Assembly (NCBI GenBank): GCA_030602615.1
Contig: JAUVZM010000001.1
Span: forward strand, 73,720 to 137,719
Direction of reading: 5' to 3'
DNA from: a bacterium
Lineage (GTDB): Bacteria; Armatimonadota; Zipacnadia; Zipacnadales; Zipacnadaceae
Length of the DNA stretch: 64,000 nucleotides
In this document: positions 18,893 through 32,930 of the stretch, one piece after another
How the letters are laid out: every line of letters begins with the position of its first letter
Position numbering within the stretch: the first letter of the stretch is position 1
Notes under the pieces: model-generated
Seen by the model: the letters and a program-made list of their open reading frames with translations, nothing else
What the model was told of the DNA's origin: nothing
Database searches by the model: none
Position numbers and translations under genes: made by a program

Positions 18893-19936
18893 ATGGTCAG
18901 AGGAAACTCTATGAAAGTGGGGATGTACTACAACAATCGCGATGTGCGTGTCGAGCAGATGCCGATTCCGCAGATTGGTCCGGGCGAGCTGCTTATGGAG
19001 GTCAGGGCCAGTGGGATCTGCGGCAGCGACGTTATGGAGTGGTATCGCATTAAGAAAGCCCCCCTGGTTTTGGGCCACGAGGTCACCGGCGATGTTGCTG
19101 AGGTCGGGCAGGCCGTTACTGACTATCAGGTCGGCGACCGCATCTTTGTTACCCATCACGTGCCCTACAACACCTGCCACTATTGCCTGAGTGGGCATCA
19201 TACTGCCTGTGAGACGCTGCATACTACCAACTTCTACCCCGGCGGCTTTGCCCAATATGTGCGTGTACCCCCGATCAATGTGGATCGGGGCACACTGCGT
19301 TTGCCCGCAGAGGTTTCCTATGAGGACGGCTCGTTTATCGAGCCGCTGGGCACGGTAGTGCGCGGCCAGCGCAATGCTGGTGTTGGCCCGGGCGACAGCG
19401 TGCTGGTGCTGGGCTGTGGCATCGCTGGCCTGCTGCATGTCAAGCTGGCCCAGGCACTGGGGGCCAGCCGGATTATGGCTACTGACATTGATGACTACCG
19501 AATGGCAGCCGCGCGCAAGTTGGGGGCCGACAGTGTTGCTGATGCCGCCGAAGACATCCCTGACTTCGTTCGCCAGGCCAACGAGGGCCGACTGGCTGAT
19601 AAGGTGATAGTCTGCGCCGGAGCAGTGGCGGCATTCGGGCAGGCCCTGGAGTCGGTTGACCGCGGTGGCGTGGTGCTGTTCTTTGCTGTGCCCAGGCCCG
19701 GCGAGACGGTGGCCGTTGATTTCAATCGCTTTTGGCGCGACGACATATCCTTTATGCCCAGCTACGCGGCGGCGCCCCAGGATAATGCCACTGCTCTGGA
19801 GCTTATCAGGTCGGGGCGAGTGGTAGTTAATGATATGATCACCCACCGATTGAGCCTGGAGGAAATCGGCGAGGGCTTCCGCCTGGCCAGCGCCGCTGAC
19901 CACTGTCTTAAGGTGATAATACAGCCAAATGGCTAA
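18893..19936 (+). CDS. Zn-dependent medium-chain dehydrogenase (sorbitol / threonine-DH-like)
   Basis: GHEVTGDVAEVG catalytic-Zn motif, Cys-rich structural Zn loop, Rossmann GCGIAGLL. Start moved to ATG 18893, after AGGAGCAGG. The tool ORF at 18815 overlaps the aldolase. Confidence 0.8.
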   Translation: MVRGNSMKVGMYYNNRDVRVEQMPIPQIGPGELLMEVRASGICGSDVMEWYRIKKAPLVLGHEVTGDVAEVGQAVTDYQVGDRIFVTHHVPYNTCHYCLSGHHTACETLHTTNFYPGGFAQYVRVPPINVDRGTLRLPAEVSYEDGSFIEPLGTVVRGQRNAGVGPGDSVLVLGCGIAGLLHVKLAQALGASRIMATDIDDYRMAAARKLGADSVADAAEDIPDFVRQANEGRLADKVIVCAGAVAAFGQALESVDRGGVVLFFAVPRPGETVAVDFNRFWRDDISFMPSYAAAPQDNATALELIRSGRVVVNDMITHRLSLEEIGEGFRLASAADHCLKVIIQPNG

Positions 19937-20046
19937 GCTGCCCGCTAGTTGGCGATGTGGTGTCGTCTGTTATTGTGCCTTCGCGGCTTGACAGCAGCCG
20001 TCAACTCTGGGAAAATGGAATAGGAAACAATAGCTTTGGCAGGAGG

Positions 20047-21453
20047 ATGGTTCAAGTGACGAGATGGATGAGAATTGCGGTAGTATTGCTCGCTGCAGCA
20101 GTAGTGGCCGGCTGCGGGGGCGGCCCGAGCTCCTCTCGACAGACCAGTCGCCAGCAGCTCACCATTCGCGGCACCAGCTTTCCGCAACAGCTAGAGCCAG
20201 CCAGCCAGGTGAGCGTCTATGAAGACGACTACAACGGCTGGCCAGCGCTGTTTATGAAGAATGGTCTGGTCACGGTAGTGGCAGTGCCGGCCATCGGCGG
20301 TCGGATTATGGAGTACAACCTGGGCACTCACCCCTTCCTGTGGGTCAACGACGCTGAATTTGGTAAGACCTATGACCCACCCAAGACAGAGGAAGAGCGA
20401 CGGTGGCACAACTATGGTGGGTACAAAGTGTGGCCGGCCCCAGAGAGCCGCTGGGACGGGCCGCCTGATCCGTTGGGCTCGGCTCTGGATGGCGGAAAGT
20501 GGACTGGCGAGATCACTGCCCACGGTGGCCAGATTGGGGAGATTGAGCTGGTCAGTCCCGCTGACGAGAACGTGACGGGTTTGCAGATTAAGCGGAGAGT
20601 ACAGATGTTTGCTGGTACTACCCAGGTAGTGGTTACCGAGACCTTCGAAAACGTAAGCGCCGAGCCGATTGAATGGAGTATCTGGGGAGTCACCCAGGTC
20701 CGCGGCTCGCTGTCCAGCAGCGAAAAGTTCAGTGAACAGGCCCGCATCTACTTCCCGCTGAATCCCGACAACCGTGCCTCGAAGGGCTTCTGGTATTTGA
20801 CCAAAGGTCCGTCGGATCAATTTCAACTGCTCGACGATGGGAAGCTGATGCAGGTCTCTTACGGCTTTGAGACCAGCAAAATCGGCGCAGACGTAGCTGA
20901 CGGCTGGATGGCTTACGTTGACGATATTCACCAGTATGCTTTTGTCCAGCGTTTTGAGGAGCGGAGCTTGAGCGAATATCCCGACCAGGGCGCGAACGTG
21001 GAGGTATATACCTCGGGTGAAGAGTTCGCCCATATGGAGATGGAGACACTCAGCCAGTTATACACCCTCCAGCCCGGCGAGACGAAATCCTACTCTCAAC
21101 AGTGGTATGCCACCAGCTTGCCAGGACCGGTTCGCGATACCACCGAGCTGGCGGCTATCCGCGAGCCGTTGCGCCTGGAAAGTGTGGAGGCGGGATTGCA
21201 GCTTACTGGCGAGCTGGGCATATTTGCGCCAGGAACCCTTGAGGTCGTCCTGACTGACAGTGCAGGGAGACCTATGGGCGAGCCGGTGGCTGCGATCACA
21301 GTCAGCCCAGCACAGACAGTGGTGTTGGACCAGATTGTAACGCCGCAGCCAGAGGCGTCGGCACTGGTCCTGAGACTGGTCAACGACTGGGACACACCGC
21401 TGGGCGAGGTAGCCAGCGTCTCGTTGGCGACCCAGACCGCGCAGGCCCCCTGA
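20047..21453 (+). CDS. Secreted lipoprotein, possibly DUF4380 / mutarotase-like fold
   Basis: Lipobox LLAAAVVAGCGG after an AGGAGG RBS. GGRIMEYNL motif and a beta-rich sequence. No catalytic assignment possible. Confidence 0.45.
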   Translation: MVQVTRWMRIAVVLLAAAVVAGCGGGPSSSRQTSRQQLTIRGTSFPQQLEPASQVSVYEDDYNGWPALFMKNGLVTVVAVPAIGGRIMEYNLGTHPFLWVNDAEFGKTYDPPKTEEERRWHNYGGYKVWPAPESRWDGPPDPLGSALDGGKWTGEITAHGGQIGEIELVSPADENVTGLQIKRRVQMFAGTTQVVVTETFENVSAEPIEWSIWGVTQVRGSLSSSEKFSEQARIYFPLNPDNRASKGFWYLTKGPSDQFQLLDDGKLMQVSYGFETSKIGADVADGWMAYVDDIHQYAFVQRFEERSLSEYPDQGANVEVYTSGEEFAHMEMETLSQLYTLQPGETKSYSQQWYATSLPGPVRDTTELAAIREPLRLESVEAGLQLTGELGIFAPGTLEVVLTDSAGRPMGEPVAAITVSPAQTVVLDQIVTPQPEASALVLRLVNDWDTPLGEVASVSLATQTAQAP

Positions 21454-21635
21454 ATCCGATGGTAAAGACCCGCATTTACCATTTGTCACTGGGAGGTAAG
21501 AGAGCTGGATGAGGCCCTGGGCTTGACCGAGTTAACGGGGCTTACGCCGGTAGCGGGTGACTATGCCCTTACTGCGGCGAAGGATCGGTGGTGTTGCGTA
21601 TGCCCAGGCGGGATTGTCTCTGCTATCGCCCCAGC

Positions 21636-21669
21636 GCTGTCATACTTGTTCAATTCGGGGCAGAATCCC
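21636..21669 (+). promoter_or_regulatory. Conserved promoter module (copy A): CTGTCA, 18-nt spacer, CAGAAT
   Basis: 31 of 34 nt identical to 30322..30355, and matches the inverted copy at 26741..26771. RBS GAGGTGG and ATG 21683 follow. Confidence 0.55.
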
Positions 21670-21682
21670 AGAGGTGGACGAA

Positions 21683-24304
21683 ATGTACAATGCCAAAGCA
21701 ACAGTGTTTTTGGCAACTCTGATGTGTGCAGTAGGACTGACAATATGTGAGGCGTACACCGAGAGCTTCCCCGGGGGGATCTTGGGGCCACGGCAATCAC
21801 AGATCCCGGCGGCGCAGTGGACGAAGGCCGAGTTAGACAAGGGGTACGTGGTCTTCACGCATAGCACCTTGGAGGGCCTTCAACCCGACTACGTGCCCGC
21901 GCGGAGAGCGGTCGTCGGCAAGGTATCCTGTGCCCTGGCCCAGGGTGAGTACAAGTCCGTGCAGATCGGCGTCCACTCGCTGACCGGAGGCCTTCAGAGC
22001 GTGCGCCTGGAGCTTGAATCGGACCTGGAGGCCAGGATATACCGCTCCATTGACGGGGAGACGAGGAAGCTGCTTCTGGGATATGAGAACCCCGTGCCTG
22101 ACTCGATCCATGCCGTGTGTCTGGACGAGTCGAGCCGGATCGCCTCGATCGAGAAAGGGAGCACCTCCTTTTTCTGGGTGACCCTTCATGCAGAGGAGAA
22201 CGCCACTGCAGGCAAGCACCGTGGCAAGATGCTTATCCGACCCGCGGGCAGGCCTGCCACGGAACTGGATCTGGAGGTGACCGTAAGGCCCTTCAAACTC
22301 CAGCGCGCCAGAATTGCCTACGCTCCGTTCTTCTACGTGGAGTGGAAGCCGGGGGCGCTCCCCAAGTTCGCCCAGACCGACGAGTGGATCGGCGCCTTCT
22401 TCCGCGACATGGCCGAGCACTCGCACACCTCCGTCATCATACACGGCGCGGGATTCGTGGACTTCTCCAGGCTCCCCCCTCCGGAGAACCGGTACTTCTC
22501 TACGCTGCTCCCTCTGGCCAAGCAGGTGGGTCTGACCAGCCCCGGCATCCCCATCATCGTTATGGACCACAACATGGCCCGGAGGCAAGACCAAGGCGGG
22601 ATGGAGACCGTGGAGCAGAGGAATGCGGCTATGGACTGGTACGAGGCAGAACGGCGCAAGCACGGCTGGCCGGAGATCGCCGCTTATGGCCAGGATGAAC
22701 CATCTTATCCGCATCCTGTTGTTCGGAGGAACTGGGAGTGGTTCCGCGATGTACGGATGCGGCTAGCCACCGCGTTGTTTGCCCCGGCAGCGTACGGGTT
22801 CGGAGATTTCCACGATATCTGGATTGTGATTGGGGGAAGTATCACGCAGGAGATGGTCGCGGAGGCCGAGCGGATGGGCGCGGAAGTGTGGACCTACATC
22901 TGTACGCCCATGTCCAACAATCCCCTGCACGAACGCCACTATGCAGGCCTGTACGTCTGGGCATACGGATTGAAAGGTCATACCACGTGGCATCACTATG
23001 ACGGGGGCGAGTTCAAGCTCGTGTGGATGCGGGAAGGCGACCAGCGCCCGATGCCGCTGGTCGGGTGGGAGACCCGTCGCGAAGGCGTTGACGACTACCG
23101 TTATCTGCAGATGCTGGAGGACTGCGTTGCGGCCCAGCCGGGCAATCCCCTGGCCGCTGAGGCGAAGAAGTGGATAGCCGGCCTGCGCGCCCGAATCGTC
23201 ACAGCGGATCCCTACATCCGAAACGTTCCTGGAAAGCCTTTGGCCCTGGATGAGTATGACCGTATCCGCGAGAAAGCGGCGGGGTACATCCAAAGGTTGG
23301 GTCCAGTACCGGCGGACCGGATTCCCCCGAGTCCACCCACACGCCTGAAAGACGAGGCGAAGCTCTTCCGAGGCAAGCCCGTGCAAGAGTGCATCGCCGG
23401 CCTCAGGAGCACGCAGGCCTCCACCCGTCGCGCGGCAGCATGGGCTCTGTTCGAAAAAGGCTGGCAGGCCGCCCCGGCTGTGCCAGCTCTGACGGACTTG
23501 CTGGACGACACCGATGTGCGCATACCGGCGTTGCGGGCGCTGGAGGCGATCGGGCATGAGAGCCGCCCGGCCCTGCCGAAACTGACAGCGCTCCTGAAAC
23601 ATCCGGACGGGTTCGTGCGACTGGGCGCCATTCACGCCCTGGGCGCCATCGGAGCACCTTCCATTCATGCGCTGATGCAAGCGACGGGAGACGAGTATTG
23701 GCCAGCCAAGTGCCGTGCCGCGAACTACATGCCGTGGATGGCAGGACAAGCAGCTCTGCGATCGGCGATGCCCGCCGTGCTGCCGGTCCTGATCAAGCTA
23801 CTCGACGATCCTAGCCCGAATGTGTGGACGTCGACTTTGTGGGCCTTCGAGCTCATCGGCCCGGAAGCTGCGCCCGCCGTGCCGCACATCATCAGGCTCA
23901 TACAGGGAGTTGTCCCAACTACCCGTCTCCGCTACCATAAACGCTGGACCGATGCACTGGCAGCCATCGGACCCGGAGCGGCGCAAGCCGTACCCATGTT
24001 GGAGGAGTTCCGCAAGGACCACGGCTCTTCAGATCCGCTCGCGGAAGCCTATGCGTTAAACGCGCTGTACAGAATCAGGGGCTCGCCGGAGGACCTCCAC
24101 GCGCTCGTCGCCCTGATCAGCGGCGCCGGAGAGGGACCGATAGACGCATCCGCGGCCCTGCAAAAGCTGGAGGAACTGGGCAGCGAGGCGAGAGACGCCG
24201 CGCCCCAGATCCGGGAGCTGATCGCTCAGGGCGGCCTGAGCGACGACGTGAAGAAGCGGCTTGAGGCAGTCCTCGATTCGATAGCCGCCCCGGCCGGCGA
24301 GTGA
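21683..24304 (+). CDS. Secreted GH123-like (DUF4091) putative beta-N-acetylhexosaminidase fused to C-terminal HEAT/PBS-lyase-like repeats
   Basis: Signal peptide MYNAKATVFLATLMCAVGLTICEA. Central region is paralogous to ORF 26984, sharing the G.DEPS motif, WTY.C block and REGV(D/E)DYR(Y/L)L motif. The C-terminal ~300 aa are repeated AAPAVPALTDLLDD / ALRALEAIG HEAT-like units. Start set to ATG 21683; the tool ORF starts at 21557. Confidence 0.6.
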   Translation: MYNAKATVFLATLMCAVGLTICEAYTESFPGGILGPRQSQIPAAQWTKAELDKGYVVFTHSTLEGLQPDYVPARRAVVGKVSCALAQGEYKSVQIGVHSLTGGLQSVRLELESDLEARIYRSIDGETRKLLLGYENPVPDSIHAVCLDESSRIASIEKGSTSFFWVTLHAEENATAGKHRGKMLIRPAGRPATELDLEVTVRPFKLQRARIAYAPFFYVEWKPGALPKFAQTDEWIGAFFRDMAEHSHTSVIIHGAGFVDFSRLPPPENRYFSTLLPLAKQVGLTSPGIPIIVMDHNMARRQDQGGMETVEQRNAAMDWYEAERRKHGWPEIAAYGQDEPSYPHPVVRRNWEWFRDVRMRLATALFAPAAYGFGDFHDIWIVIGGSITQEMVAEAERMGAEVWTYICTPMSNNPLHERHYAGLYVWAYGLKGHTTWHHYDGGEFKLVWMREGDQRPMPLVGWETRREGVDDYRYLQMLEDCVAAQPGNPLAAEAKKWIAGLRARIVTADPYIRNVPGKPLALDEYDRIREKAAGYIQRLGPVPADRIPPSPPTRLKDEAKLFRGKPVQECIAGLRSTQASTRRAAAWALFEKGWQAAPAVPALTDLLDDTDVRIPALRALEAIGHESRPALPKLTALLKHPDGFVRLGAIHALGAIGAPSIHALMQATGDEYWPAKCRAANYMPWMAGQAALRSAMPAVLPVLIKLLDDPSPNVWTSTLWAFELIGPEAAPAVPHIIRLIQGVVPTTRLRYHKRWTDALAAIGPGAAQAVPMLEEFRKDHGSSDPLAEAYALNALYRIRGSPEDLHALVALISGAGEGPIDASAALQKLEELGSEARDAAPQIRELIAQGGLSDDVKKRLEAVLDSIAAPAGE

Positions 24305-24528: not shown

Positions 24529-26613
24529 TTACTCTCCCGCTACTGGCATCCACACGCGCATTGCGGAATCGGCGCGATTAGCCCAGGCATAATAGGGAAT
24601 AGCCGTCACCAGGACTTTGTCCCTACGCATTGTGGGTCGCGTACCTAGCGGATGATAGAGGGGACTGTTCTCCGGGGCATAGCAAACTGGCAAGGCCCGC
24701 CGGCGCAGGACGGTCACGCCGCCCAGCAGGTCGGGCTGCCACTCAGGCCGGAAGCCGCCCTCCGGGTCTGGCGTCTCGAAGACCAAGGCCAGGTCAGCCA
24801 GAACCGTGTCGGGATTATCTACACTCTCAAAGCAGTAGACTAACGGGCCACGCTGCAACGCCACACAGCCCCGGTTCTCCGCCACACGTGGATGGCTTTC
24901 CATTATTCGCACCGGCATTGGTAACTGCAGGCGGACCGTATCTCCGGGCCGCCACCGGCGTGTAAGCTTTAGATAATTGCCAGGCTCAATGGCCGCAGAC
25001 AATGGCTCATCATTCACCGCTGCCGCGGCTCCTGCTGCCCAGCCCGGAATGCGGAGGAAGAGAGTGAACTGTGCAGGTTGTTGCAAATCTAACGCGATTT
25101 CAATCTCGCCCTCCCCCGGGTACTTAGTGTCCATCTTCAGTGTGACTCGGGGGCCGTCGGGTACAGGGAGCGTGGCCTGGCAGGTATCGTAAAGGTGCAC
25201 CCAGAGGCCCTGGCGGCTGGTACTGAAGAGGTAACCGGGAACAGCCGCCAGCGTACGGTGGATGTTGGGGGGGCAGCAGTTGCACGGGAACCAGGACTGC
25301 CGCTGGTAGCCGCCGTCCGAGGCCAGCGGGTTGCCGTAGAAGTATTTGCTCCCGTCCAGAGATACGCCGGACAGAAAGCCATTGTATAGAATCGTCTCCA
25401 TCACATCCGCATACTGGGCCTCGCCCGTCAGCAGCAACATGCGCCAGGCCCACATTGCGTGCGCGATCTGTGCACAGCTCTCGGCATAGGCCCAGGTGAG
25501 TTCGTTATAGTGCGCCCGCGGTCCAGGGAAATACCCCCATCGTCCCCCGTGTTGTGAAGGCCGTGTACCGGTGGTGTCGGCCCAGGCGTTAGGCAGCTCG
25601 TACCGCTCACCGAAAGACTCGCCGCGAGCCCCCATGCCACCAGTGATGTAGATCTTACCTCCGACTAAGTCCTGCCACAAGGACTGCAGGTTGGCCCACA
25701 TCTGCTCGTCGCCAGTTTCAGCATAATAGTCAGCTCCGCCACAGCAGAGATAGCCGGACCGGACGGCGTGACCTACCACGATGCGATTGTTTAGATATTG
25801 GGACTGGCCCAAGAAGAAGGCAGCGAGGTCCCAATAGCGCGTCCTACCGGTGGTGCGGTACAGTTCGATCAGGGCCATTTCCACCTCGGGATGTCCGGGG
25901 GCGGCCTCGATTTTTCCGGGGCCAAACTCCTGGCATATATAATCAGCGAGGCGGCAGGCCACTTGCAGCAAACTGTCCTGGCCGGTGGCCCGGTAGTAGG
26001 CAATCGCCGCCTGCACTAGATGCCCGGCGCAGTACAGCTCATCGGGGCAAGTGTTGAGGAACAAGCGGCCGTCTTCGCCCTGGGCGGCTGCGATGTCGTC
26101 AATAATTGCTGCCACCGTTTGCCGCAGTTCAGGCAGATCCTGCGACTGGAGAGCCCAGGAGACCCCCTCCAGCCACTTATACAGGTCAGATTCGCTGCCG
26201 TAAGAAGCGTCCCGGAATTCAACCTGCTTGCGTCCGGACAGGCGCCGGAAATTATCCACCACCCCATGCTCCTCCATTAGACGTAGGAAAGTGGGCATTC
26301 CCTCCTTGGCATTGGCCTCCATTCGCGGCCGCCAAAAGCCTGGCCCCATTGCTACCGCCCGGATCGGCACCGATTGCAACCGAAACTGCGACCCCCGGCG
26401 GGTATCGACAACGCCGCCTTGTTGCCACTGGTCCTCCGGTTGTAGTTCCCTATCTTCGACAATGCCGCCGTTGGGGTCAAAACCTGTGCGTGCCACGACA
26501 CCCTCAGGCACCGGTCTGAAGGCTGGTTTAGCTTTTCCTGCACGAATCACGCTAACAAGCAATGCGCAAACACCAACTAGCACCAACAAGTCAGACAGTC
26601 TCATGTTCTTCAC
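24529..26613 (-). CDS. GH127 (DUF1680) beta-L-arabinofuranosidase-like glycoside hydrolase
   Basis: 694 aa. N-terminal signal anchor. GH127-type GFWRPRMEANAKEGMPTFLRLMEEHGVVDNFRR block and Cys-rich catalytic region. GTG start. Confidence 0.75.
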   Translation of the reverse strand: MKNMRLSDLLVLVGVCALLVSVIRAGKAKPAFRPVPEGVVARTGFDPNGGIVEDRELQPEDQWQQGGVVDTRRGSQFRLQSVPIRAVAMGPGFWRPRMEANAKEGMPTFLRLMEEHGVVDNFRRLSGRKQVEFRDASYGSESDLYKWLEGVSWALQSQDLPELRQTVAAIIDDIAAAQGEDGRLFLNTCPDELYCAGHLVQAAIAYYRATGQDSLLQVACRLADYICQEFGPGKIEAAPGHPEVEMALIELYRTTGRTRYWDLAAFFLGQSQYLNNRIVVGHAVRSGYLCCGGADYYAETGDEQMWANLQSLWQDLVGGKIYITGGMGARGESFGERYELPNAWADTTGTRPSQHGGRWGYFPGPRAHYNELTWAYAESCAQIAHAMWAWRMLLLTGEAQYADVMETILYNGFLSGVSLDGSKYFYGNPLASDGGYQRQSWFPCNCCPPNIHRTLAAVPGYLFSTSRQGLWVHLYDTCQATLPVPDGPRVTLKMDTKYPGEGEIEIALDLQQPAQFTLFLRIPGWAAGAAAAVNDEPLSAAIEPGNYLKLTRRWRPGDTVRLQLPMPVRIMESHPRVAENRGCVALQRGPLVYCFESVDNPDTVLADLALVFETPDPEGGFRPEWQPDLLGGVTVLRRRALPVCYAPENSPLYHPLGTRPTMRRDKVLVTAIPYYAWANRADSAMRVWMPVAGE

Positions 26614-26771
26614 TTCTTCTTTCAGCGAGATTTCCCAGATGCTTTGTTGCTGCCTGTAGCATCCTCTGTTTACTGCACTGCTTCCTCCCGATGCGGATCA
26701 TTTAGCTAGAAAAACTCCAGATTAGAACACTTCTGACGAAGATTCTACCCCGAATTGAACAAGTTTGACAA
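26591..26771 (-). promoter_or_regulatory. Conserved promoter + leader + uORF cassette (copy C, oriented with GH127)
   Basis: On the minus strand: TTGTCA, 18 nt, TAGAAT (plus coordinates 26741..26771). Leader CGTCAGAAGTgTTCTAATCT...GCATCGGGAGGAAGCAGTGCAG follows. A 23-codon uORF (26591..26662, MLQAATKHLGNL...) overlaps the GH127 start in the +1 frame. Confidence 0.55.
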
Positions 26772-26905: not shown

Positions 26906-26983
26906 AGGAAGGTAACTTTCGCAACAGTCTCAAACAAGTAAGAGCCAAATGCTAAATCTCGATGAGAAGGAAAGGATGCTGCC

Positions 26984-28765
26984 ATGAGAATGATTGCCAA
27001 CGACTTGCGGTGTTATGTCATATGGATGCTGGCGGGTGTCTGGTGCGTGGCACTGATGACAAGCGCGTTCGCGGCGGCTGAGCAAGCCGACCGGGTCATG
27101 AACTGGCGCCAATATCCCACTCCTTACGGGACGCCCGCCACGGCCCGCCCGCCGGACGAGGCGTTCTTGAAGGTCATACCGCCCTTGAAGACACTGGGTA
27201 CCATCAGTGACGAGGCGAAGGAGTTGGGGGTCGCCGTCTGGTGGGCCGACTACGGGCAGAATGTCTTTTGCGAGCAGCCGCCGACCGACGAGGACCTCGC
27301 GCGCAAGGGCGCAATCCGCACGAGCGCGGGCGAGGACGAGCCGTTGGTCCTGGCGCTGTGGGGGCTCGACGACGTGGGCAATGCGACGCTTAGCGCGAAC
27401 GCCCCGGTCTTCCCGGTCACGATCCGCAAAGTGGAGTTTGAGCCCCGGTACATCCCGGGCGACTACCGGGACTATCACATCGACGGTGGGCGCAAGGTGG
27501 GCATTCCCACGTATCTGCCGGAAGAATCGAGCGTCGTGGTGAAGGCTGGCGAGAACGCGCCGTTCTGGGTGACGGTGTCCGTGCCCGAGGACGCCGCGCC
27601 CGGGACTTACGAGATTCCGTTCCGGTTGATCCTCACGGACGCGAACAAGGCCGTGACGCTCGCGGTCACGGTCGAGGTGCTGCCGTTCGAGCTGCCGCGG
27701 GCGAAGATCGCCTACGGTATGTATTTTCGCCCCTCGGCGAAGACGCTCGAGAACCCGCGCGACCGCACGCCGGAGCGGCTGCGTTTCTACTGGCGAGATA
27801 TGGCACGTCATGGCATGACAAGTGCGACCCTCTACAACTACACTCGCCTGCACGATCCTGAGGGGAATCTCAATCTCCACACCGTGCCGGTGCTGGGGTG
27901 GCTTGAGGAGATGATCGAGGAAGGGCTCGTCACGCCGGACGTGCCCGTCATGTACCTGGACGGCGGCGGGATCGACCTGGCGAACCCCAAGACGCCGGAG
28001 ATCCTCGCCTCGCTCAAGGAGGAGATCGCCGAGCGCGGCTGGCCGGAATTCCTCTACTACGGGCCCGACGAGCCGTCGGTCAATGACAAGGGCTGGGCGG
28101 ATTTCGAACGCCTGCAGCCCTTGCGCGAGTATTTTCGCGTCGTCACCGCGATCGGCGATCACGCGGTAAACGCGTATGCGGATTTTCTGGATGTTTATAT
28201 CGTGAACGCCGGTTGCACGAGCCCGGAAATGTACAAGCTGGCTGCCGACAAGGACGCGGAGCTGTGGACCTACACATGTCACAATCGAGGGCGAAGCAAT
28301 GCGCCGTTCCAGCGATACTACGCGGGCATTTTCACGTGGGCGCTGCGCCTGAAGGGAAACTTCATGTGGGCTTACACCGAGAACTATACGCGGGAAAAGG
28401 GTCAGTATCTTCCCTGGTCTCCGCTGTACTGTTACGTGGTTCCCAGCGACGAAGGAGCGATCCCGTCGATCGCCTGGGAAGTCCGCCGGGAGGGTGTGGA
28501 GGACTATCGCCTGCTTACGCTCCTGGAAGAACAGATAGCGAAGAATCCTGACAACACGGTCGCTGCCGAAGCGAGAGACTGGCTGGAGCAACTGCGCGGG
28601 CGCGTTGACTGGTATATCGCGCGCGACATGCCACCGTCGCTGTATCCGTGGGACGGTCCAGAACTCTATCCGCTCTGCCCGAACTTCGAACCGGCGGAGT
28701 TCTCGAAGATCCGGGCCAAGGTGATCGATTACATTCTTCAGTTGAGCAGCGCCGCCGGCGGCTAG
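26984..28765 (+). CDS. Secreted GH123-like (DUF4091) protein, paralogue of 21683
   Basis: 593 aa. Signal peptide. Shares the LPRAKIAYG, YGPDEPS, WTYTC and REGVEDYRLL blocks with the 915-aa protein. Confidence 0.6.
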   Translation: MRMIANDLRCYVIWMLAGVWCVALMTSAFAAAEQADRVMNWRQYPTPYGTPATARPPDEAFLKVIPPLKTLGTISDEAKELGVAVWWADYGQNVFCEQPPTDEDLARKGAIRTSAGEDEPLVLALWGLDDVGNATLSANAPVFPVTIRKVEFEPRYIPGDYRDYHIDGGRKVGIPTYLPEESSVVVKAGENAPFWVTVSVPEDAAPGTYEIPFRLILTDANKAVTLAVTVEVLPFELPRAKIAYGMYFRPSAKTLENPRDRTPERLRFYWRDMARHGMTSATLYNYTRLHDPEGNLNLHTVPVLGWLEEMIEEGLVTPDVPVMYLDGGGIDLANPKTPEILASLKEEIAERGWPEFLYYGPDEPSVNDKGWADFERLQPLREYFRVVTAIGDHAVNAYADFLDVYIVNAGCTSPEMYKLAADKDAELWTYTCHNRGRSNAPFQRYYAGIFTWALRLKGNFMWAYTENYTREKGQYLPWSPLYCYVVPSDEGAIPSIAWEVRREGVEDYRLLTLLEEQIAKNPDNTVAAEARDWLEQLRGRVDWYIARDMPPSLYPWDGPELYPLCPNFEPAEFSKIRAKVIDYILQLSSAAGG

Positions 28766-29082
28766 TGCGCCCCAACCGGGATCGTCAGCTTTGAGACGTT
28801 TGGGCCTGCATTATAGAGAGCGCACAACTTGCCCGGCCGCCAGCGCGGACGGGAGCCATAGACCTTGAGCCTGAAGATGTCCTCCTCAACTCGGTAGCAA
28901 GACGTAGCCAGCAGCTCGCCGCCGGGCAACAGTGCTACGGAGGTTTTATAGATGTCCCGCTGCCCGATGCGAACCCGCATGGCCGGTTGAAGGGTCCAGT
29001 GGACCACCTGCTGCAAGTCGAAGCCAGTAAAGCCAGCCATCCCTTCCGGGTACTGGGCATAGTCTGGCTCTTCGGCGAACAC
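28762..29082 (-). CDS. Short hypothetical ORF, possibly a gene remnant
   Basis: 106 aa from a GTG start. The stop overlaps the convergent GH123-like gene. No domain recognised. Its upstream end runs into leader copy 1. Confidence 0.2.
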   Translation of the reverse strand: MFAEEPDYAQYPEGMAGFTGFDLQQVVHWTLQPAMRVRIGQRDIYKTSVALLPGGELLATSCYRVEEDIFRLKVYGSRPRWRPGKLCALYNAGPNVSKLTIPVGAH

Positions 29083-29111
29083 CGGCGCCGTAGCCGGCTC
29101 GATTGGCGCCG

Positions 29112-29289
29112 CCCCGTCAGAAGTCTTCTAATCTCGGGTCTTTCTAGCTAATTGATTCGCATCCGGAGGAATTAGTGCAGGAAATAGAGAATGTCAAACG
29201 TAGTAACAAACGATATGAGAGACCCCAGTTCACTGTCATCCAGGCATTCCTGGTGCTCTGGCTCGACTAAGGGGGAAAGGAATAACGCT
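29112..29289 (+). promoter_or_regulatory. Conserved leader + uORF cassette (copy 1, lacks the -35/-10 module)
   Basis: CCCCGTCAGAAGTCTTCTAATCTCGGGTCTTTCTAGCTAATTGATTCGCATCCGGAGGAATTAGTGCAGGAAATAGAGAATG, about 90 % identical to copy 2. The uORF ATG at 29191 (MSNVVTNDMRDPS...) runs in frame into the PIG-L gene. Confidence 0.55.
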
Positions 29290-30198
29290 ATGTCTAAAAG
29301 ACCGCTCGTAGTCGAGAATATTCTGCCGGACGAAAACATTAACATCCTGGTCGTTGGTGCGCATCCGGCTGATGCGTTTGATGATATCGGCGGCACGCTG
29401 GCCCATCACGCGGCCCGGGGCGATCACATCACCGCCTTAATCCTGACACACGGAGCGCGTGTCCACGATGTGGTCTTGACCGATGAGGTGGGCCAGCGCG
29501 AGCGCGCTCCCACCCGCGAGGAACTGGAGCCCATCATCGAGGAGCGCACGAGCGTGAAGCACCAGGAAGTCCTGGAAGCCTGCCAGATTCTAGGGTTCTC
29601 CGACTTGCGCTTCCTCACCTACGACGACAGCGTCCTGACCCTAAAAGAGGAGCTCATGCAGAGGATCGCTAAAGTCATTCGAGAGGTGCAGCCGCATCTC
29701 CTCATTACTCACTATCCCCTCGAAAGCGGAGGCATCGCCAGCCACCATGCTATCACGGGCCAACTGGTCCTCAATGCCGTGGGGTCGGCCTCCAGAGTCT
29801 CGCCTGAAGACCCTAACCCCCCATGGGGGGTGCCCGAGGTCTATTTCAAGGCCATCCATACGGCACTGGCGAGGCCAGACGTGCTGAGTCACGCTACTGC
29901 AGGCTTTGCCAATGTCTATGTGGACGTCACCGACGTCATCGAACTCTTAGTCAAGGCTCTGGACAAGATGAAGAGCCAACAGTACAACGGTGCCTGGGCC
30001 CGTAAATCCCGCGAGGTGTACGAGGGCGTCTTTGGCCTCAATGTCGGTGTCGCCTACGCCGAAGCGTTCATCCGCCTTAGGGCACAAGTCTGCGATTACC
30101 TGCCCCTCTCACACTATGCCATGGCAAGGGCTAACGAGCTTGAAGCCACTGAGCACCGTCGCCAGAACCTCCTAGTGTGCCATACAGTGCCTGAATAG
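29290..30198 (+). CDS. PIG-L / LmbE-family N-acetylglucosaminyl deacetylase
   Basis: ILVVGAHPADAFDDIGGTLAHH (HPDD-type motif) and the H..H zinc region. RBS AAGGGGGAAAGGA before ATG 29290. The tool ORF starts at the upstream in-frame ATG 29191. Confidence 0.7.
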   Translation: MSKRPLVVENILPDENINILVVGAHPADAFDDIGGTLAHHAARGDHITALILTHGARVHDVVLTDEVGQRERAPTREELEPIIEERTSVKHQEVLEACQILGFSDLRFLTYDDSVLTLKEELMQRIAKVIREVQPHLLITHYPLESGGIASHHAITGQLVLNAVGSASRVSPEDPNPPWGVPEVYFKAIHTALARPDVLSHATAGFANVYVDVTDVIELLVKALDKMKSQQYNGAWARKSREVYEGVFGLNVGVAYAEAFIRLRAQVCDYLPLSHYAMARANELEATEHRRQNLLVCHTVPE

Positions 30199-30321
30199 TC
30201 GTACAGTGGTCTTTATGTTGTCAACTGTATCAGTATGCGGGTGGATATGGCAGGTGCACCAAGCGGCGGTTGTTCTGTCTGATGTTGCCAAGGCAGGAGT
30301 GTCTCTGCCCTGGGCCCGCAA

Positions 30322-30508
30322 GCTGTCATACTTGTTCAGTTCGGCGCACAATCCCCGTCAGAAGTCTTCTAATCTCGGGTCTTTCTAGCTAATTAATCCG
30401 CATCGGAGGAATTAGTGCAGCAAACAGAGAATATGAGTAGTCCCAGATTAGTGCAGGAAACAGAGAATGTTGAACGTACTGGCAAAGCATATGAGAAATC
30501 CCAGCTAA
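30322..30508 (+). promoter_or_regulatory. Conserved promoter + leader + uORF cassette (copy 2)
   Basis: CTGTCA, 18 nt, CACAAT module, then the same ~80-nt leader with an internal 22-nt duplication (ATTAGTGCAGcAAACAGAGAAT repeated). 13-codon uORF at 30467..30508 (MLNVLAKHMRNPS). Located upstream of the MttB-like gene. Confidence 0.55.
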
Positions 30509-30554
30509 CCAAAACCCCAAGCCGACGAGTTAGCCTACCATTGTAGGGAGATTA

Positions 30555-31979
30555 TTGGAATTGATTACTTTCCGCCTCGACGGTGGGTTCACGGAAGCCC
30601 AACTGGATCAGGTATACAGCGAAACTTTCCAGGTACTTGAGGAAATCGGCGTGGAGGTCGGCGACGACGAGATTCGTCAGTATCTGGGAGAGTTACCGGG
30701 CATCTCCGTGCGAGGCACACGGGTCTGCTATGCCCCCAGCCTGGTGAAAGAATGGATCGAAGTCATCAAAGAGGACAATCTTGAGTACGCTTACAACCGC
30801 AAAGACGGCCGCATCCGGATGGTCGGACCGTACATGGGACAGTACTATCACGACCCAGACACCGACGAGGTGCGGCTAGCGACCGGGGCGGATATGAGCC
30901 TTGCGGTGAAGCTGTGCGACGCCCTTGACTTCTACGGTCCCTCGCCGATCCACCTGCAGACCGTCCCTCCACCTGTTCGCCAAGTGACGACCTTCAAGAT
31001 CTGTGTGGAGAACAGCCGAGAAGTCGGTGGCTGGGGGCCGGCGGCCACCGAGAAGGACGGATACTGGCTGTGCCAGATTGGTGAAGCGGCAGGGCGCCAG
31101 CCTCCGCACTGCTGTATGGAGATCCCCATCAGCCCCCTGCGGCTCAACCACAAGGCTCTACGGATGATTTACAATCGCCGTAATCAGGATGATCAACTGA
31201 CCGGCATGGTACTGGGCGGCGGGGTTGTGCCGATGCCTGGAGCAACGGCGCCCATCTTTGCGCCAGCCTGCTTTATCCAGAGCATGGCCGAGGCCCTGGC
31301 CGCCTACATCACCCCTCAGTTAATTGATCCCCGAGTGCAGGGGTACTGCTCGTTCGGCGGTAAGCTGTTCGATCTGCGGCGTATGACCCCAAGTATTATG
31401 TTTCCCGAGACTGCCCTGTACACCAGCTTGGTCCGGCAGGTCATTCAGCGTTTCTTAGGTGAGACGATGGGCGGTCAACTCGCCGATGTGGGTATCATGA
31501 AAAGATTCGAAGACTACAGTGTGGACGGGTTTGGCAGCCCACAGGCCACCCTTGAGTTGGGCTTCCGCATAGCCCTGGACATCCTGGCCGGTGCGCGCAC
31601 CTTCCTGGGAGTAGGTGGGTACGGTGATGGCTTCTGTCCCGTGACGGCGGTTATTGAGGCCGACCTGGTGAACCACTTTACTAAATTCATTGCTGGCTGC
31701 GCATACCGTTATGAACCCGGGATCAATCTACGCACTATGACCGAGGCCCTGGAGGACAAAAACTACCTGGCGCATCCCACGACGCTAGAGTATCGTGAGC
31801 TGTATCTAATCCCAGAGTTGGTCTTCAGGCATGACACGCGCCCGGAACTGGTCGCCGCCGCTTGGGAGAAGGCCCAACAGATAGTCGCCGAGCACGACTA
31901 TGCGCTGCCCGAGGACGTACAGCGCAACGTCACAGAAGTCTACGAAGCGGCGTGTGCAGACCTACTGGAAGGGAAGTAG
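30555..31979 (+). CDS. MttB-superfamily methyltransferase, non-pyrrolysine member (quaternary-amine:corrinoid methyltransferase-like)
   Basis: 474 aa, TTG start after GGGAG. PMPGATAPIFAPACFIQSMAEALAAYIT resembles the MttB GATAP...AGxL block. No in-frame amber codon. Confidence 0.55.
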   Translation: MELITFRLDGGFTEAQLDQVYSETFQVLEEIGVEVGDDEIRQYLGELPGISVRGTRVCYAPSLVKEWIEVIKEDNLEYAYNRKDGRIRMVGPYMGQYYHDPDTDEVRLATGADMSLAVKLCDALDFYGPSPIHLQTVPPPVRQVTTFKICVENSREVGGWGPAATEKDGYWLCQIGEAAGRQPPHCCMEIPISPLRLNHKALRMIYNRRNQDDQLTGMVLGGGVVPMPGATAPIFAPACFIQSMAEALAAYITPQLIDPRVQGYCSFGGKLFDLRRMTPSIMFPETALYTSLVRQVIQRFLGETMGGQLADVGIMKRFEDYSVDGFGSPQATLELGFRIALDILAGARTFLGVGGYGDGFCPVTAVIEADLVNHFTKFIAGCAYRYEPGINLRTMTEALEDKNYLAHPTTLEYRELYLIPELVFRHDTRPELVAAAWEKAQQIVAEHDYALPEDVQRNVTEVYEAACADLLEGK

Positions 31980-31982
31980 ACC

Positions 31983-32930
31983 ATGGGGCTGCAAATCAGA
32001 GATTTCGCGCCTGTGGGTGCTGATCTGGCGACCATCTGCCACATCTGGAACGAAGCGGTGGCCCCAGAATCAGAATTGTATCTGCATATGACGCCAGAGT
32101 TGCTGGCCGAGCGGCTTGCCGGTCGCTCTGGTACACCTAGGCGCATCTGCCTACTGGCGCAAGCCCAGGGCGAAGCCATAGGGCTGGCCGTAGGGACGGT
32201 GACGCCAGCGGCAGCCCCTGAAGCGGCCAATCTGGCCTGTGTAGCAGTGTTGCCGCAGGCCCGGTGGCATGGTATCGGCTCAGCCCTACTAGCTGAAATT
32301 GAGGAAAGAAGCCGGGCCGCCGGCTGCACCAAGTTGAAGGTGGGCTCTGCTTCCCAGGTCCGGCTGGCCCACGGCGTTGCCCCGACTACACCCGGCCATC
32401 TGTGGCTGCTGCACAAAGGCTTTCGCGTCGCCAAAGACGAATTGTTCATGCGCATGGCATTCGGCACATGGCAAATGCCAGGGCAGATCCAGCAAATAAT
32501 CGAGGGCCTCTGCGCTCAGGGCGTTGACTTTCGCATAGCGACAAAGGGTGACCTGCCTGGGCTTATGGCCACTGCCCGAGAGTTTAGCGACCATCTACCC
32601 CAGATATTCCAGGATAACGTGGCGGGAGCCAAGGGCGCACCGGTGCTGATTGCAGTAGAGGGTGGACAGGTGGTGGGGTTCGTCGGCCCGCTGACGGTAT
32701 CGAAGTGCGGCTTTGCCGACTTCGCTTTTATAGGTGTTTCTGAGACTTACCGGGGTCGGGGGATCGGCAAGGCGCTGTTCTATCTTTGCTTGGACAATTT
32801 CCAGGAACGCGGCGCCCGCGCTTTTGAGCTGGTGACCGACTCGACCAACCCTGCGCAGAAATTGTATCTGGACGCGGGCATGCGCCTGGTGACTGTGTTA
32901 TTACATCTTGAGAAGCGTCTGGGCCACTGA
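31983..32930 (+). CDS. Tandem-GNAT N-acetyltransferase
   Basis: 315 aa with two acetyl-CoA binding cores (VLPQARWHGIGSALL and VSETYRGRGIGKALF). ATG lies 4 nt after the MttB stop. Confidence 0.7.
   Translation: MGLQIRDFAPVGADLATICHIWNEAVAPESELYLHMTPELLAERLAGRSGTPRRICLLAQAQGEAIGLAVGTVTPAAAPEAANLACVAVLPQARWHGIGSALLAEIEERSRAAGCTKLKVGSASQVRLAHGVAPTTPGHLWLLHKGFRVAKDELFMRMAFGTWQMPGQIQQIIEGLCAQGVDFRIATKGDLPGLMATAREFSDHLPQIFQDNVAGAKGAPVLIAVEGGQVVGFVGPLTVSKCGFADFAFIGVSETYRGRGIGKALFYLCLDNFQERGARAFELVTDSTNPAQKLYLDAGMRLVTVLLHLEKRLGH

Follow-up and report, generated by a model that had tools for sequence, protein, structure and literature searches.

Every characterized enzyme of the MttB superfamily demethylates trimethylamine or a small quaternary amine, and most members have no known substrate. 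In MtgB, R312 and H348 are the carboxylate ligands for glycine betaine (PMC13080624), and in MttB, Gly372 hydrogen-bonds the corrin (PMC9842639). In Eubacterium limosum, MtqC is the corrinoid protein common to MtpB, MtcB, and MtyB (PMC8604678). Here we describe an MttB-like gene in a 64-kb stretch of contig JAUVZM010000001.1 from a bacterium of the phylum Armatimonadota (hereafter the window). The gene lies among glycan-degradation genes, is followed by a double GNAT N-acetyltransferase gene, and has no corrinoid partner in the window. It belongs to a rare clade of MttB-like proteins, which we infer to have been co-opted for cytoplasmic steps in glycan breakdown.

The MttB-like gene is an uninterrupted open reading frame (ORF) of 474 codons with a TTG start, a TAG stop, and a ribosome-binding site, GGGAG, 5 nucleotides upstream of the start. 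Its product is predicted to be cytoplasmic and matches the Pfam family MTTB (PF06253) over residues 13–411 with 47.8 bits (E = 7e-13; gathering cut-off, 25 bits). The AlphaFold2 (AF2) model, for which an alignment of 29 clade members served as input, has a predicted local distance difference test score (pLDDT) of 86 and a predicted template-modeling score (pTM) of 0.85, and it is poorly modeled at residues 312–324, within a variable, low-confidence loop of about residues 303–324. When the model was searched against the PDB with Foldseek, the top matches all belonged to the MttB superfamily (MtgB, 9yce/2qne; MttB, 7xcl/7xcn; and a Sinorhizobium homologue, 4yyc), with E values of 5e-20 to 4e-16, template-modeling (TM) scores of 0.71–0.73, and identities of 16–20%. 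The next fold class was MtmB, at E = 4e-4. In the model, the protein combines a TIM barrel with an N-terminal subdomain and a C-terminal extension, as in the solved MttB members. The ORF is free of internal TAG codons, MttB Pyl334 aligns to the variable loop, and the score on TIGR02369, the equivalog model of pyrrolysine (Pyl)-containing MttB, is 78.8 bits against a cut-off of 525. The initial annotation had called the gene a non-pyrrolysine MttB-family member, and both parts of this assignment hold. With its MttB fold, the product is a genuine member of the family, although a very divergent one that shares only 16–24% identity with any characterized member.

The clade is small and sharply bounded. 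A word-indexed search of 5.8 billion proteins returned about 30 relatives at 43–91% identity, followed by a sharp drop to about 25%. When 1.84 billion cluster representatives were scanned in full with HMMER, the core clade comprised three 50%-identity clusters above 700 bits, followed by a few sister clusters at 276–444 bits and a continuum below. Among 185,579 GTDB representatives, the clade occurs in at least seven species (2 Armatimonadota, 2 Planctomycetota, 2 Omnitrophota, and 1 Desantisbacteria), and among the GTDB matches listed, those of the Armatimonadota are closest to the window protein (65–69%). The size of the clade is better judged from these searches of protein collections than from pattern scans, which gave at least 7 genome and at least 4 metagenome loci. 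The patchy distribution across phyla suggests horizontal transfer. Genes of mobile elements near some of the MttB-like clusters fit this suggestion: an IS630-like HTH+DDE_3 transposase pair lies a few kb downstream in Desantisbacteria (locus L016, 9463–10493, identical to L025), and a TraG-like P-loop protein and an AAA ATPase are encoded downstream in L007 (15843–19770, identical to L008).

Since all 56 invariant columns of the clade alignment (A1) are kept in the window copy and the ratio of non-synonymous to synonymous substitution rates (dN/dS) of MttB-like genes between lineages is 0.13–0.14, the gene is considered functional. The closest pair, formed by the window gene and positions 697–2121 of L012, shares 95% nucleotide and 91% amino-acid identity and has a dN/dS of 0.61; the adjacent GNAT gene gives 0.33 in the same comparison. 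Recent change, either relaxed or diversifying, may explain the value of 0.61, as may noise in metagenome assembly.

After removal of duplicates, about 11 clade lineages have a readable gene context, and in none of them is a corrinoid protein, RamA, or a pterin-binding methyltransferase encoded near the MttB-like gene. The clade loci hold glycoside hydrolases and hydrolase-like proteins (GH2, GH3, GH42, GHL6/GHL10, DUF4838+CBM9, and BNR sialidases, with GH123-like and GH127 in the window) together with sugar oxidoreductases and isomerases (GFO_IDH_MocA, Zn-ADH, 2-Hacid_dh, and AP_endonuc_2). LacI/GntR-type regulators are encoded directly upstream of the MttB-like gene in L026 and L027. The initial annotation described the window gene as an orphan. 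This is correct insofar as no corrinoid partner is adjacent, but the gene is not isolated, since a missing adjacent corrinoid gene, a GNAT nearby, and a glycan locus are the rule in the conserved clade of which it is a member.

The most specific neighbor of the clade is the GNAT. Six or seven clade lineages have a GNAT gene within four genes, which is of one of three unrelated types. A double GNAT directly follows the MttB-like gene in the window, L012, L010/L011, L009, and L016, and a single GNAT of 158–167 amino acids is encoded directly before it or 1–3 genes upstream in L019, L001, and L007. An Eis-like GNAT is found at the locus of the sister protein P0037, so that at least four unrelated types (double type A, double type B, single, and Eis-like) occur near the clade and its sister. 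The double GNATs of L016 and the window share only 22% identity. Since the GNAT types are unrelated, the pairing has arisen repeatedly, and this repetition argues for a functional need for N-acetylation.

In the window, the GNAT ORF starts 3 nucleotides past the MttB-like stop codon, and the two genes therefore probably form one operon. Its two Acetyltransf_1 (PF00583) stretches score 83.7 bits, and an R-x-x-G-x-G acetyl-CoA motif is present in each half (RWHGIG and RGRGIG, both of the form R/Q-x-x-G-x-G/A), which agrees with the initial annotation of a tandem GNAT and indicates two intact domains. The best PDB matches of the GNAT reach E values of only about 1e-3. Its score on TIGR03448 (mycothiol synthase MshD) is 32.3 bits against a cut-off of 163. 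Biosynthesis of a thiol (mycothiol or bacillithiol) by the PIG-L enzyme encoded upstream and the double GNAT was rejected, since the equivalog cut-offs are far from being reached and the genes lie in a catabolic context. The GNAT ATG is also in frame with the MttB-like gene, one codon after the TAG (31977–31985), and read-through would yield a fusion of 791 amino acids. This layout is probably a coincidence, since 18 of the 44 genes in the window end in TAG, more than in any other stop codon, and L010, L009, and L016 do not have the two genes in frame.

The MttB-like/GNAT operon is preceded by a leader with the motif GTCATACTTGTTCAGTTCGG (30325–30344), a block of 52 nucleotides (30353–30404), and a tandemly duplicated unit of 36 nucleotides (30412 and 30448). 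A second leader copy upstream of the PIG-L gene has about 120 nucleotides in common with it (96% identity over 52 nucleotides and 81% over 63), which confirms the earlier placement of the MttB-like gene under a leader of the glycan island. The motif of 20 nucleotides, GTCATACTTGTTCARTTCGG, recurs upstream of the GH127 and HEAT-repeat genes; it was found three times, with 0 occurrences expected by chance. From its sequence, the leader with its motif looks like a shared promoter, operator, or 5′ untranslated region element of the glycan island, and the sharing of the leader with the PIG-L gene and of the motif with the GH127 and HEAT-repeat genes points to co-regulation of the operon with the glycan genes. 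Rfam searches of the whole window returned no family at gathering thresholds, and positions 28900–30600 gave no match even at E ≤ 1, which rules out a known riboswitch or RNA family in the leader. A scan for promoters and terminators gave counts equal to those in shuffled sequence.

Profile alignments of the MttB-like protein to solved structures were compared with the published active sites of MtgB (PMC13080624) and MttB (PMC9842639). The core motifs S193-P-L195, P226, G229, P233, A245-E246, P284-E285, G346, G354, and F360 are present and are 65–100% conserved in 122 distant members of the family; the subset of S-P-L, G229, P233, A-E, P-E, G346, and G354, present in full, is 80–100% conserved across these members. 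G357 aligns with MttB Gly372, and V225 replaces MttB Met249. In the profile alignment, the invariant Y93 is offset by 1 position from the MtgB cation-π residue Y97, and the near-invariant F360 by 3 positions from its partner F356; the pair may be kept. The clade has invariants of its own, namely N75, Y78, Y80, N81, R82, Y93, H133, Q143, E189, GGG221-223, D258, G-Y-C-S-F-G-G 263-269, F283, D370, and H374, which are rare among the 122 distant members. Several of them appear to be located at the C-terminal ends of the predicted barrel strands. The substrate pocket of the clade is thus remodeled relative to the characterized members, and the polar mix of its invariants would fit a sugar or amino-sugar ligand, not a betaine.

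We consider that the MttB-like protein may well be a cobamide-dependent MT1-type methyltransferase whose substrate is a methylated sugar or cyclitol that bears an amine and derives from a glycan. The genes of the corrinoid carrier and its activase would lie elsewhere in the genome, and the GNAT would acetylate the product; we give this reading about an even chance. A sugar-derived substrate, not a betaine, is probable because the clade occurs in sugar-degrading clusters, usually by an acetyltransferase gene and never by the gene of a B12 carrier. In such a pathway, the secreted hydrolases (GH127 and GH123-like) would free oligo- or monosaccharides for import, and the CE14-type PIG-L enzyme would expose an amine. 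The MttB-like barrel would then bind a cationic, methylated, amine-bearing sugar or cyclitol, of which an N-methylamino sugar is the simplest fit and an O-methyl compound is possible, and would present the methyl group of this substrate to a Co(I) cobamide on a corrinoid protein. This carrier would be encoded elsewhere in the genome, as would the RamA-type activase that keeps it active. Finally, the co-translated double GNAT would N-acetylate the demethylated amine, so that the product could enter ordinary N-acetyl-hexosamine catabolism. The initial annotation had offered a new glycan-derived substrate and partners encoded elsewhere as alternatives; the comparative evidence favors both, and the two are compatible.

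The missing partners were sought in the window in three ways. Among its 44 main ORFs, of which 43 were scanned against Pfam and one, AroA, was recognized by eye, none has a B12-binding (PF02310/PF02607), RACo/RamA (PF14574), or Pterin_bind (PF00809) domain. A six-frame scan of the window found no cobalamin motif DxHxxG..SxL..GG, and tblastn of the window with a genuine corrinoid protein, a URO-D protein, and two RamA proteins gave no match. The motif scan and tblastn both detected the partners in a control locus (L023), where the genes of a corrinoid protein, MtmB, URO-D, CobW, and a RACo activase all lie within 6 kb of that of a canonical non-pyrrolysine MttB homologue (P0035). The earlier statement that the window lacks a B12-binding protein, a RamA-like activase, and an MtgA-type gene is therefore upheld. 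Its premise that such partners are normally encoded adjacently is true of the control locus but too strong, since MtpB, MtcB, and MtyB of E. limosum are encoded apart from theirs (PMC8604678).

The next branch out from the clade, represented by P0041 and P0183, is 31–32% identical to the window protein and scores 352–359 bits on the clade profile, against 90 for the canonical P0035. It shares N75, Y78, N81, H133, Q143, GGGxxP, and G-Y-C with the clade. The P0183 gene lies on a 175-kb contig (L028), divergent beside the gene of a 612-residue Fer2-RACo/RamA activase that is 32% identical to the control RamA. This locus also holds GH36, GH3, and two PcRGLX-type genes, and no corrinoid protein is encoded within 21 kb of P0183. 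A DUF2284 gene is located next to P0041 (L021), and the literature on DUF2284 offered nothing useful for this context. Around the sister protein P0038 (L022), URO-D-like genes are found on both sides, together with AP_endonuc_2 and heparinase II/III genes; within the clade, a URO-D-like gene lies two genes downstream in L015, and a C-terminal URO-D fragment lies directly upstream in L003. MtaA and other MT2 enzymes belong to the URO-D superfamily, and these neighbors are only a hint of a link to corrinoid chemistry. Together with the precedent of dispersed partner genes in E. limosum, the RamA and URO-D links make partners encoded elsewhere the more economical explanation. Missing adjacency is not evidence of corrinoid independence.

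Several observations weigh against a corrinoid-dependent sugar demethylase. Across the window and about 285 kb of clade and sister loci, neither a corrinoid protein nor an activase nor a pterin-binding methyltransferase was found, with the L028 activase as the sole exception. At E189, D258, D370, and H374, the branch with the RamA link departs from the core clade, and its chemistry could therefore differ as well. The URO-D-like neighbors are very divergent, with MtaA as their best PDB match at an E value of only 7e-4. In the pocket, E303/T304 and G352 occupy the columns of the MtgB carboxylate ligands R312 and H348, the MttB Pyl334 column is placed in the variable loop, and MttB Tyr364 is replaced by L351. 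Four lineages (L013/L024, L004-6/L014, L003/L017, and L015) have no GNAT within reach; in L003, a CN_hydrolase occupies the GNAT position. The chemistry itself is a further obstacle, since quaternary amines react without activation, whereas a methyl ether or a primary or secondary methylamine would have to be activated first.

These points lend some weight to a corrinoid-independent neofunctionalization, in which the barrel is re-used on an amino sugar or aminocyclitol, for isomerization, deamination, a lyase reaction, or as a binding subunit, and forms a two-enzyme module with the GNAT in which no methyl group passes to cobalt. We regard this as possible, though rather doubtful. The contrast between the core clade, without genes for a corrinoid protein, activase, or tetrahydrofolate (THF)-methyltransferase in about 11 lineages, and the control locus, with all of them within 6 kb, is what such a change of function would leave behind, and the tightest partner of the clade is a GNAT rather than a methyl-transfer protein. 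Furthermore, the invariant polar residues H133, E189, D258, C265, D370, H374, N75, N81, and R82 resemble a sugar- or metal-binding catalytic site more than a betaine cage, and the loop equivalent to the Pyl/R312 region is variable and of low model confidence. On the other hand, the superfamily motifs, the corrin-contacting Gly, and the C-terminal dimerization extension have all been kept, and in the nearest out-branch, where the pocket signature is partly shared, a glycan locus pairs the MttB-like gene with that of a RamA activase. URO-D-like neighbors in three lineages also speak for a remaining corrinoid connection, and Foldseek found no non-methyltransferase protein of the MttB fold among solved structures. 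A related and more far-reaching idea, which we consider unlikely, is that the clade has no dedicated corrinoid protein, either using free or self-bound cobamide or having abandoned cobalt chemistry, and that the MttB-like protein and the GNAT are a self-contained module turning a methylated amino sugar or aminocyclitol set free from glycans into an N-acetylated product. If this were true, the MttB fold would have a new activity, and Armatimonadota, Planctomycetota, and Omnitrophota would have a way to demethylate or process sugars without oxygen.

It is improbable that the protein is an ordinary quaternary-amine methyltransferase, for glycine betaine, choline, carnitine, or a similar osmolyte, that stands beside glycan genes by chance and has MtgC/MtgA-like partners encoded in trans. 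All characterized non-pyrrolysine members use quaternary amines (PMC13080624, PMC8604678), dispersed partner genes have a precedent (PMC8604678), and Y93 and F360 are within 1–3 alignment positions of MtgB Y97 and F356. However, neither R312 nor H348 is conserved in the window protein, and R312 is conserved in MtcB, MtpB, MthB, and MtyB. Identity to the characterized members is only 16–24%. Chance adjacency also leaves unexplained the glycan and GNAT context in unrelated phyla with unrelated GNAT types, and it is countered by the operon leader common to the PIG-L and GH127 genes and by the sugar-type LacI regulators directly upstream in L026 and L027. Identity as a glycine betaine methyltransferase in particular was ruled out, since its carboxylate ligands are missing.

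That the gene is a decaying, non-functional paralogue left after loss of an mtgBCA-type locus is very improbable and largely refuted: in its favor is the dN/dS of 0.61 in the pair of window and L012 at 5% nucleotide divergence, and against it are the intact ORF with a good ribosome-binding site, the full set of 56 clade-invariant residues, the dN/dS of 0.13–0.14 at greater distances, and the persistence of the clade at 43–91% identity across four phyla with conserved partners. The initial annotation had named a degenerate copy with a canonical mtgBCA locus nearby as an outcome that would overturn it; every clade-invariant residue is kept, and no mtgBCA locus is nearby.

The features discussed here are listed in Table 1. 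They belong to a sugar island at about 18–33 kb of the window, which comprises a DeoC-type aldolase, Zn-ADH, DUF4380, HEAT-repeat, GH127, GH123-like, PIG-L, MttB-like, and GNAT genes. The housekeeping genes in the window include those for DnaE, HisD, an F-type ATP synthase, aromatic amino-acid enzymes, ParAB, and riboflavin enzymes, among others. Upstream of GH127 lie the genes of the DUF4380 protein (19957–21453) and of a HEAT-repeat protein of 915 amino acids (21557–24304). The best solved relative of the PIG-L protein is diacetylchitobiose deacetylase (E = 1.4e-9). The mechanically called PIG-L ORF starts at 29191, within the repeated leader, and the true start is probably the ATG at 29290 (MSKRPLVV), with GGGGGAAAGGAA just before it. 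The GH123-like hydrolase is probably secreted, as judged from its N-terminal sequence. Antisense ORFs of 150–550 amino acids lie opposite well-supported genes, such as an ORF of 553 amino acids (26930–28591, minus strand) opposite the GH123-like gene; these are typical high-GC artefacts and were not counted as genes.

Table 1 Features of the sugar island, with positions in the window
Feature	Position	Strand	Basis and remarks
Third copy of the 20-nucleotide motif, 5′ end of the HEAT-repeat ORF 21557-24304	21639..21658	+	Pattern search
GH127 β-L-arabinofuranosidase-like hydrolase	24529..26613	-	Pfam GH127 catalytic, middle, and C-terminal domains
Copy of the 20-nucleotide motif upstream of GH127	26750-26769	-	Pattern search
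GH123-like glycoside hydrolase, hydrophobic N-terminus	26984..28765	+	Pfam GH123_cat, 36.2 bits
Second leader copy, upstream of the PIG-L gene	29112..29233	+	Repeat analysis, alignment
PIG-L/LmbE (CE14-type) de-N-acetylase	29290..30198	+	Pfam PIG-L, 78.6 bits; start probable
Leader/regulatory block of the MttB-like/GNAT operon	30322..30509	+	Repeat analysis, pattern search
MttB-superfamily TIM-barrel protein gene	30555..31979	+	474 amino acids; member of a rare glycan-locus clade; Pfam, AF2, Foldseek, clade alignment
Tandem (double) GNAT N-acetyltransferase gene	31983..32930	+	315 amino acids; two Acetyltransf_1 stretches

Some clade loci outside the window hold other genes of note. In the Omnitrophota locus L001, formate-tetrahydrofolate ligase (FTHFS) is encoded at a distance of about 8 kb from the MttB-like gene (19491–21185, minus strand), which is a weak hint of one-carbon THF metabolism in the host. 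In a Ca. Zipacnadia lineage without a GNAT (L004, L005, L006, and L014), an ORF for a NifU_N-like fragment of 64 amino acids lies 20 nucleotides upstream of the MttB-like gene (L004, 9787–9981), and a conserved ORF of 95–100 amino acids follows it.

The clade points to an unrecognized class of substrates for the superfamily, namely methylated amino sugars, aminocyclitols, or methyl sugars, and to oxygen-independent methyl removal during polysaccharide breakdown in poorly known phyla of largely anoxic habitats. We found no paper on this clade or on corrinoid-dependent sugar demethylation. For this branch, annotations as "trimethylamine methyltransferase family", and inferences on methylamine cycling drawn from them in metagenomes, are unsafe.

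Among the known systems, MtgB of Desulfitobacterium hafniense (PDB 2qne/9yce, PMC13080624) resembles the window protein in its TIM barrel with a C-terminal extension (E = 5e-20, TM 0.73), in the core motifs SPL, G..P, AE, PE, and LxG, and in being non-pyrrolysine. The two proteins share only 18% identity, however, and R312 and H348 are replaced in the window protein. While mtgB lies together with mtgC and mtgA, these genes are never adjacent in the window clade, where the gene is surrounded by glycan genes and a GNAT gene instead. MttB of Methanosarcina barkeri (PDB 7xcl/7xcn, PMC9842639) shares the fold (TM 0.73) and an equivalent of Gly372, and the profile alignment covers residues 178–459, including the dimerization extension. 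Unlike MttB, the window protein has no Pyl codon and no adjacent mttC or ramA, and it carries Leu351 in place of Tyr364 and Val225 in place of Met249.

The closest parallel in gene order is provided by MtpB, MtcB, and MtyB of E. limosum, which are encoded apart from MtqC and MtqA/RamQ and are thus functional "orphans" (PMC8604678). They differ from the window gene in their betaine substrates, in their acetogen host with 42 paralogues, and in having neither a GNAT partner nor a glycan context. Further non-pyrrolysine homologues with unconventional corrinoid modules occur outside the classical anaerobic methylotrophs, namely MtgBCD of Ruegeria pomeroyi (PMC12478193) and the MttB/split-MetH clusters of Ca. 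Electryoneota (PMC9324843), but they encode a cobalamin-binding protein in the cluster, which the window clade does not.

The partners of the MttB-like protein also have known counterparts. The window GNAT has the two-domain architecture of double-GNAT enzymes such as MshD, and the best solved match of the PIG-L neighbor is among the CE14 deacetylases (MshB, BshB, and diacetylchitobiose deacetylase). Unlike the MshD/MshB systems, the window shows no evidence of a thiol-biosynthesis pathway. MshD-type double GNATs and CE14 deacetylases act on the amines of amino sugars.

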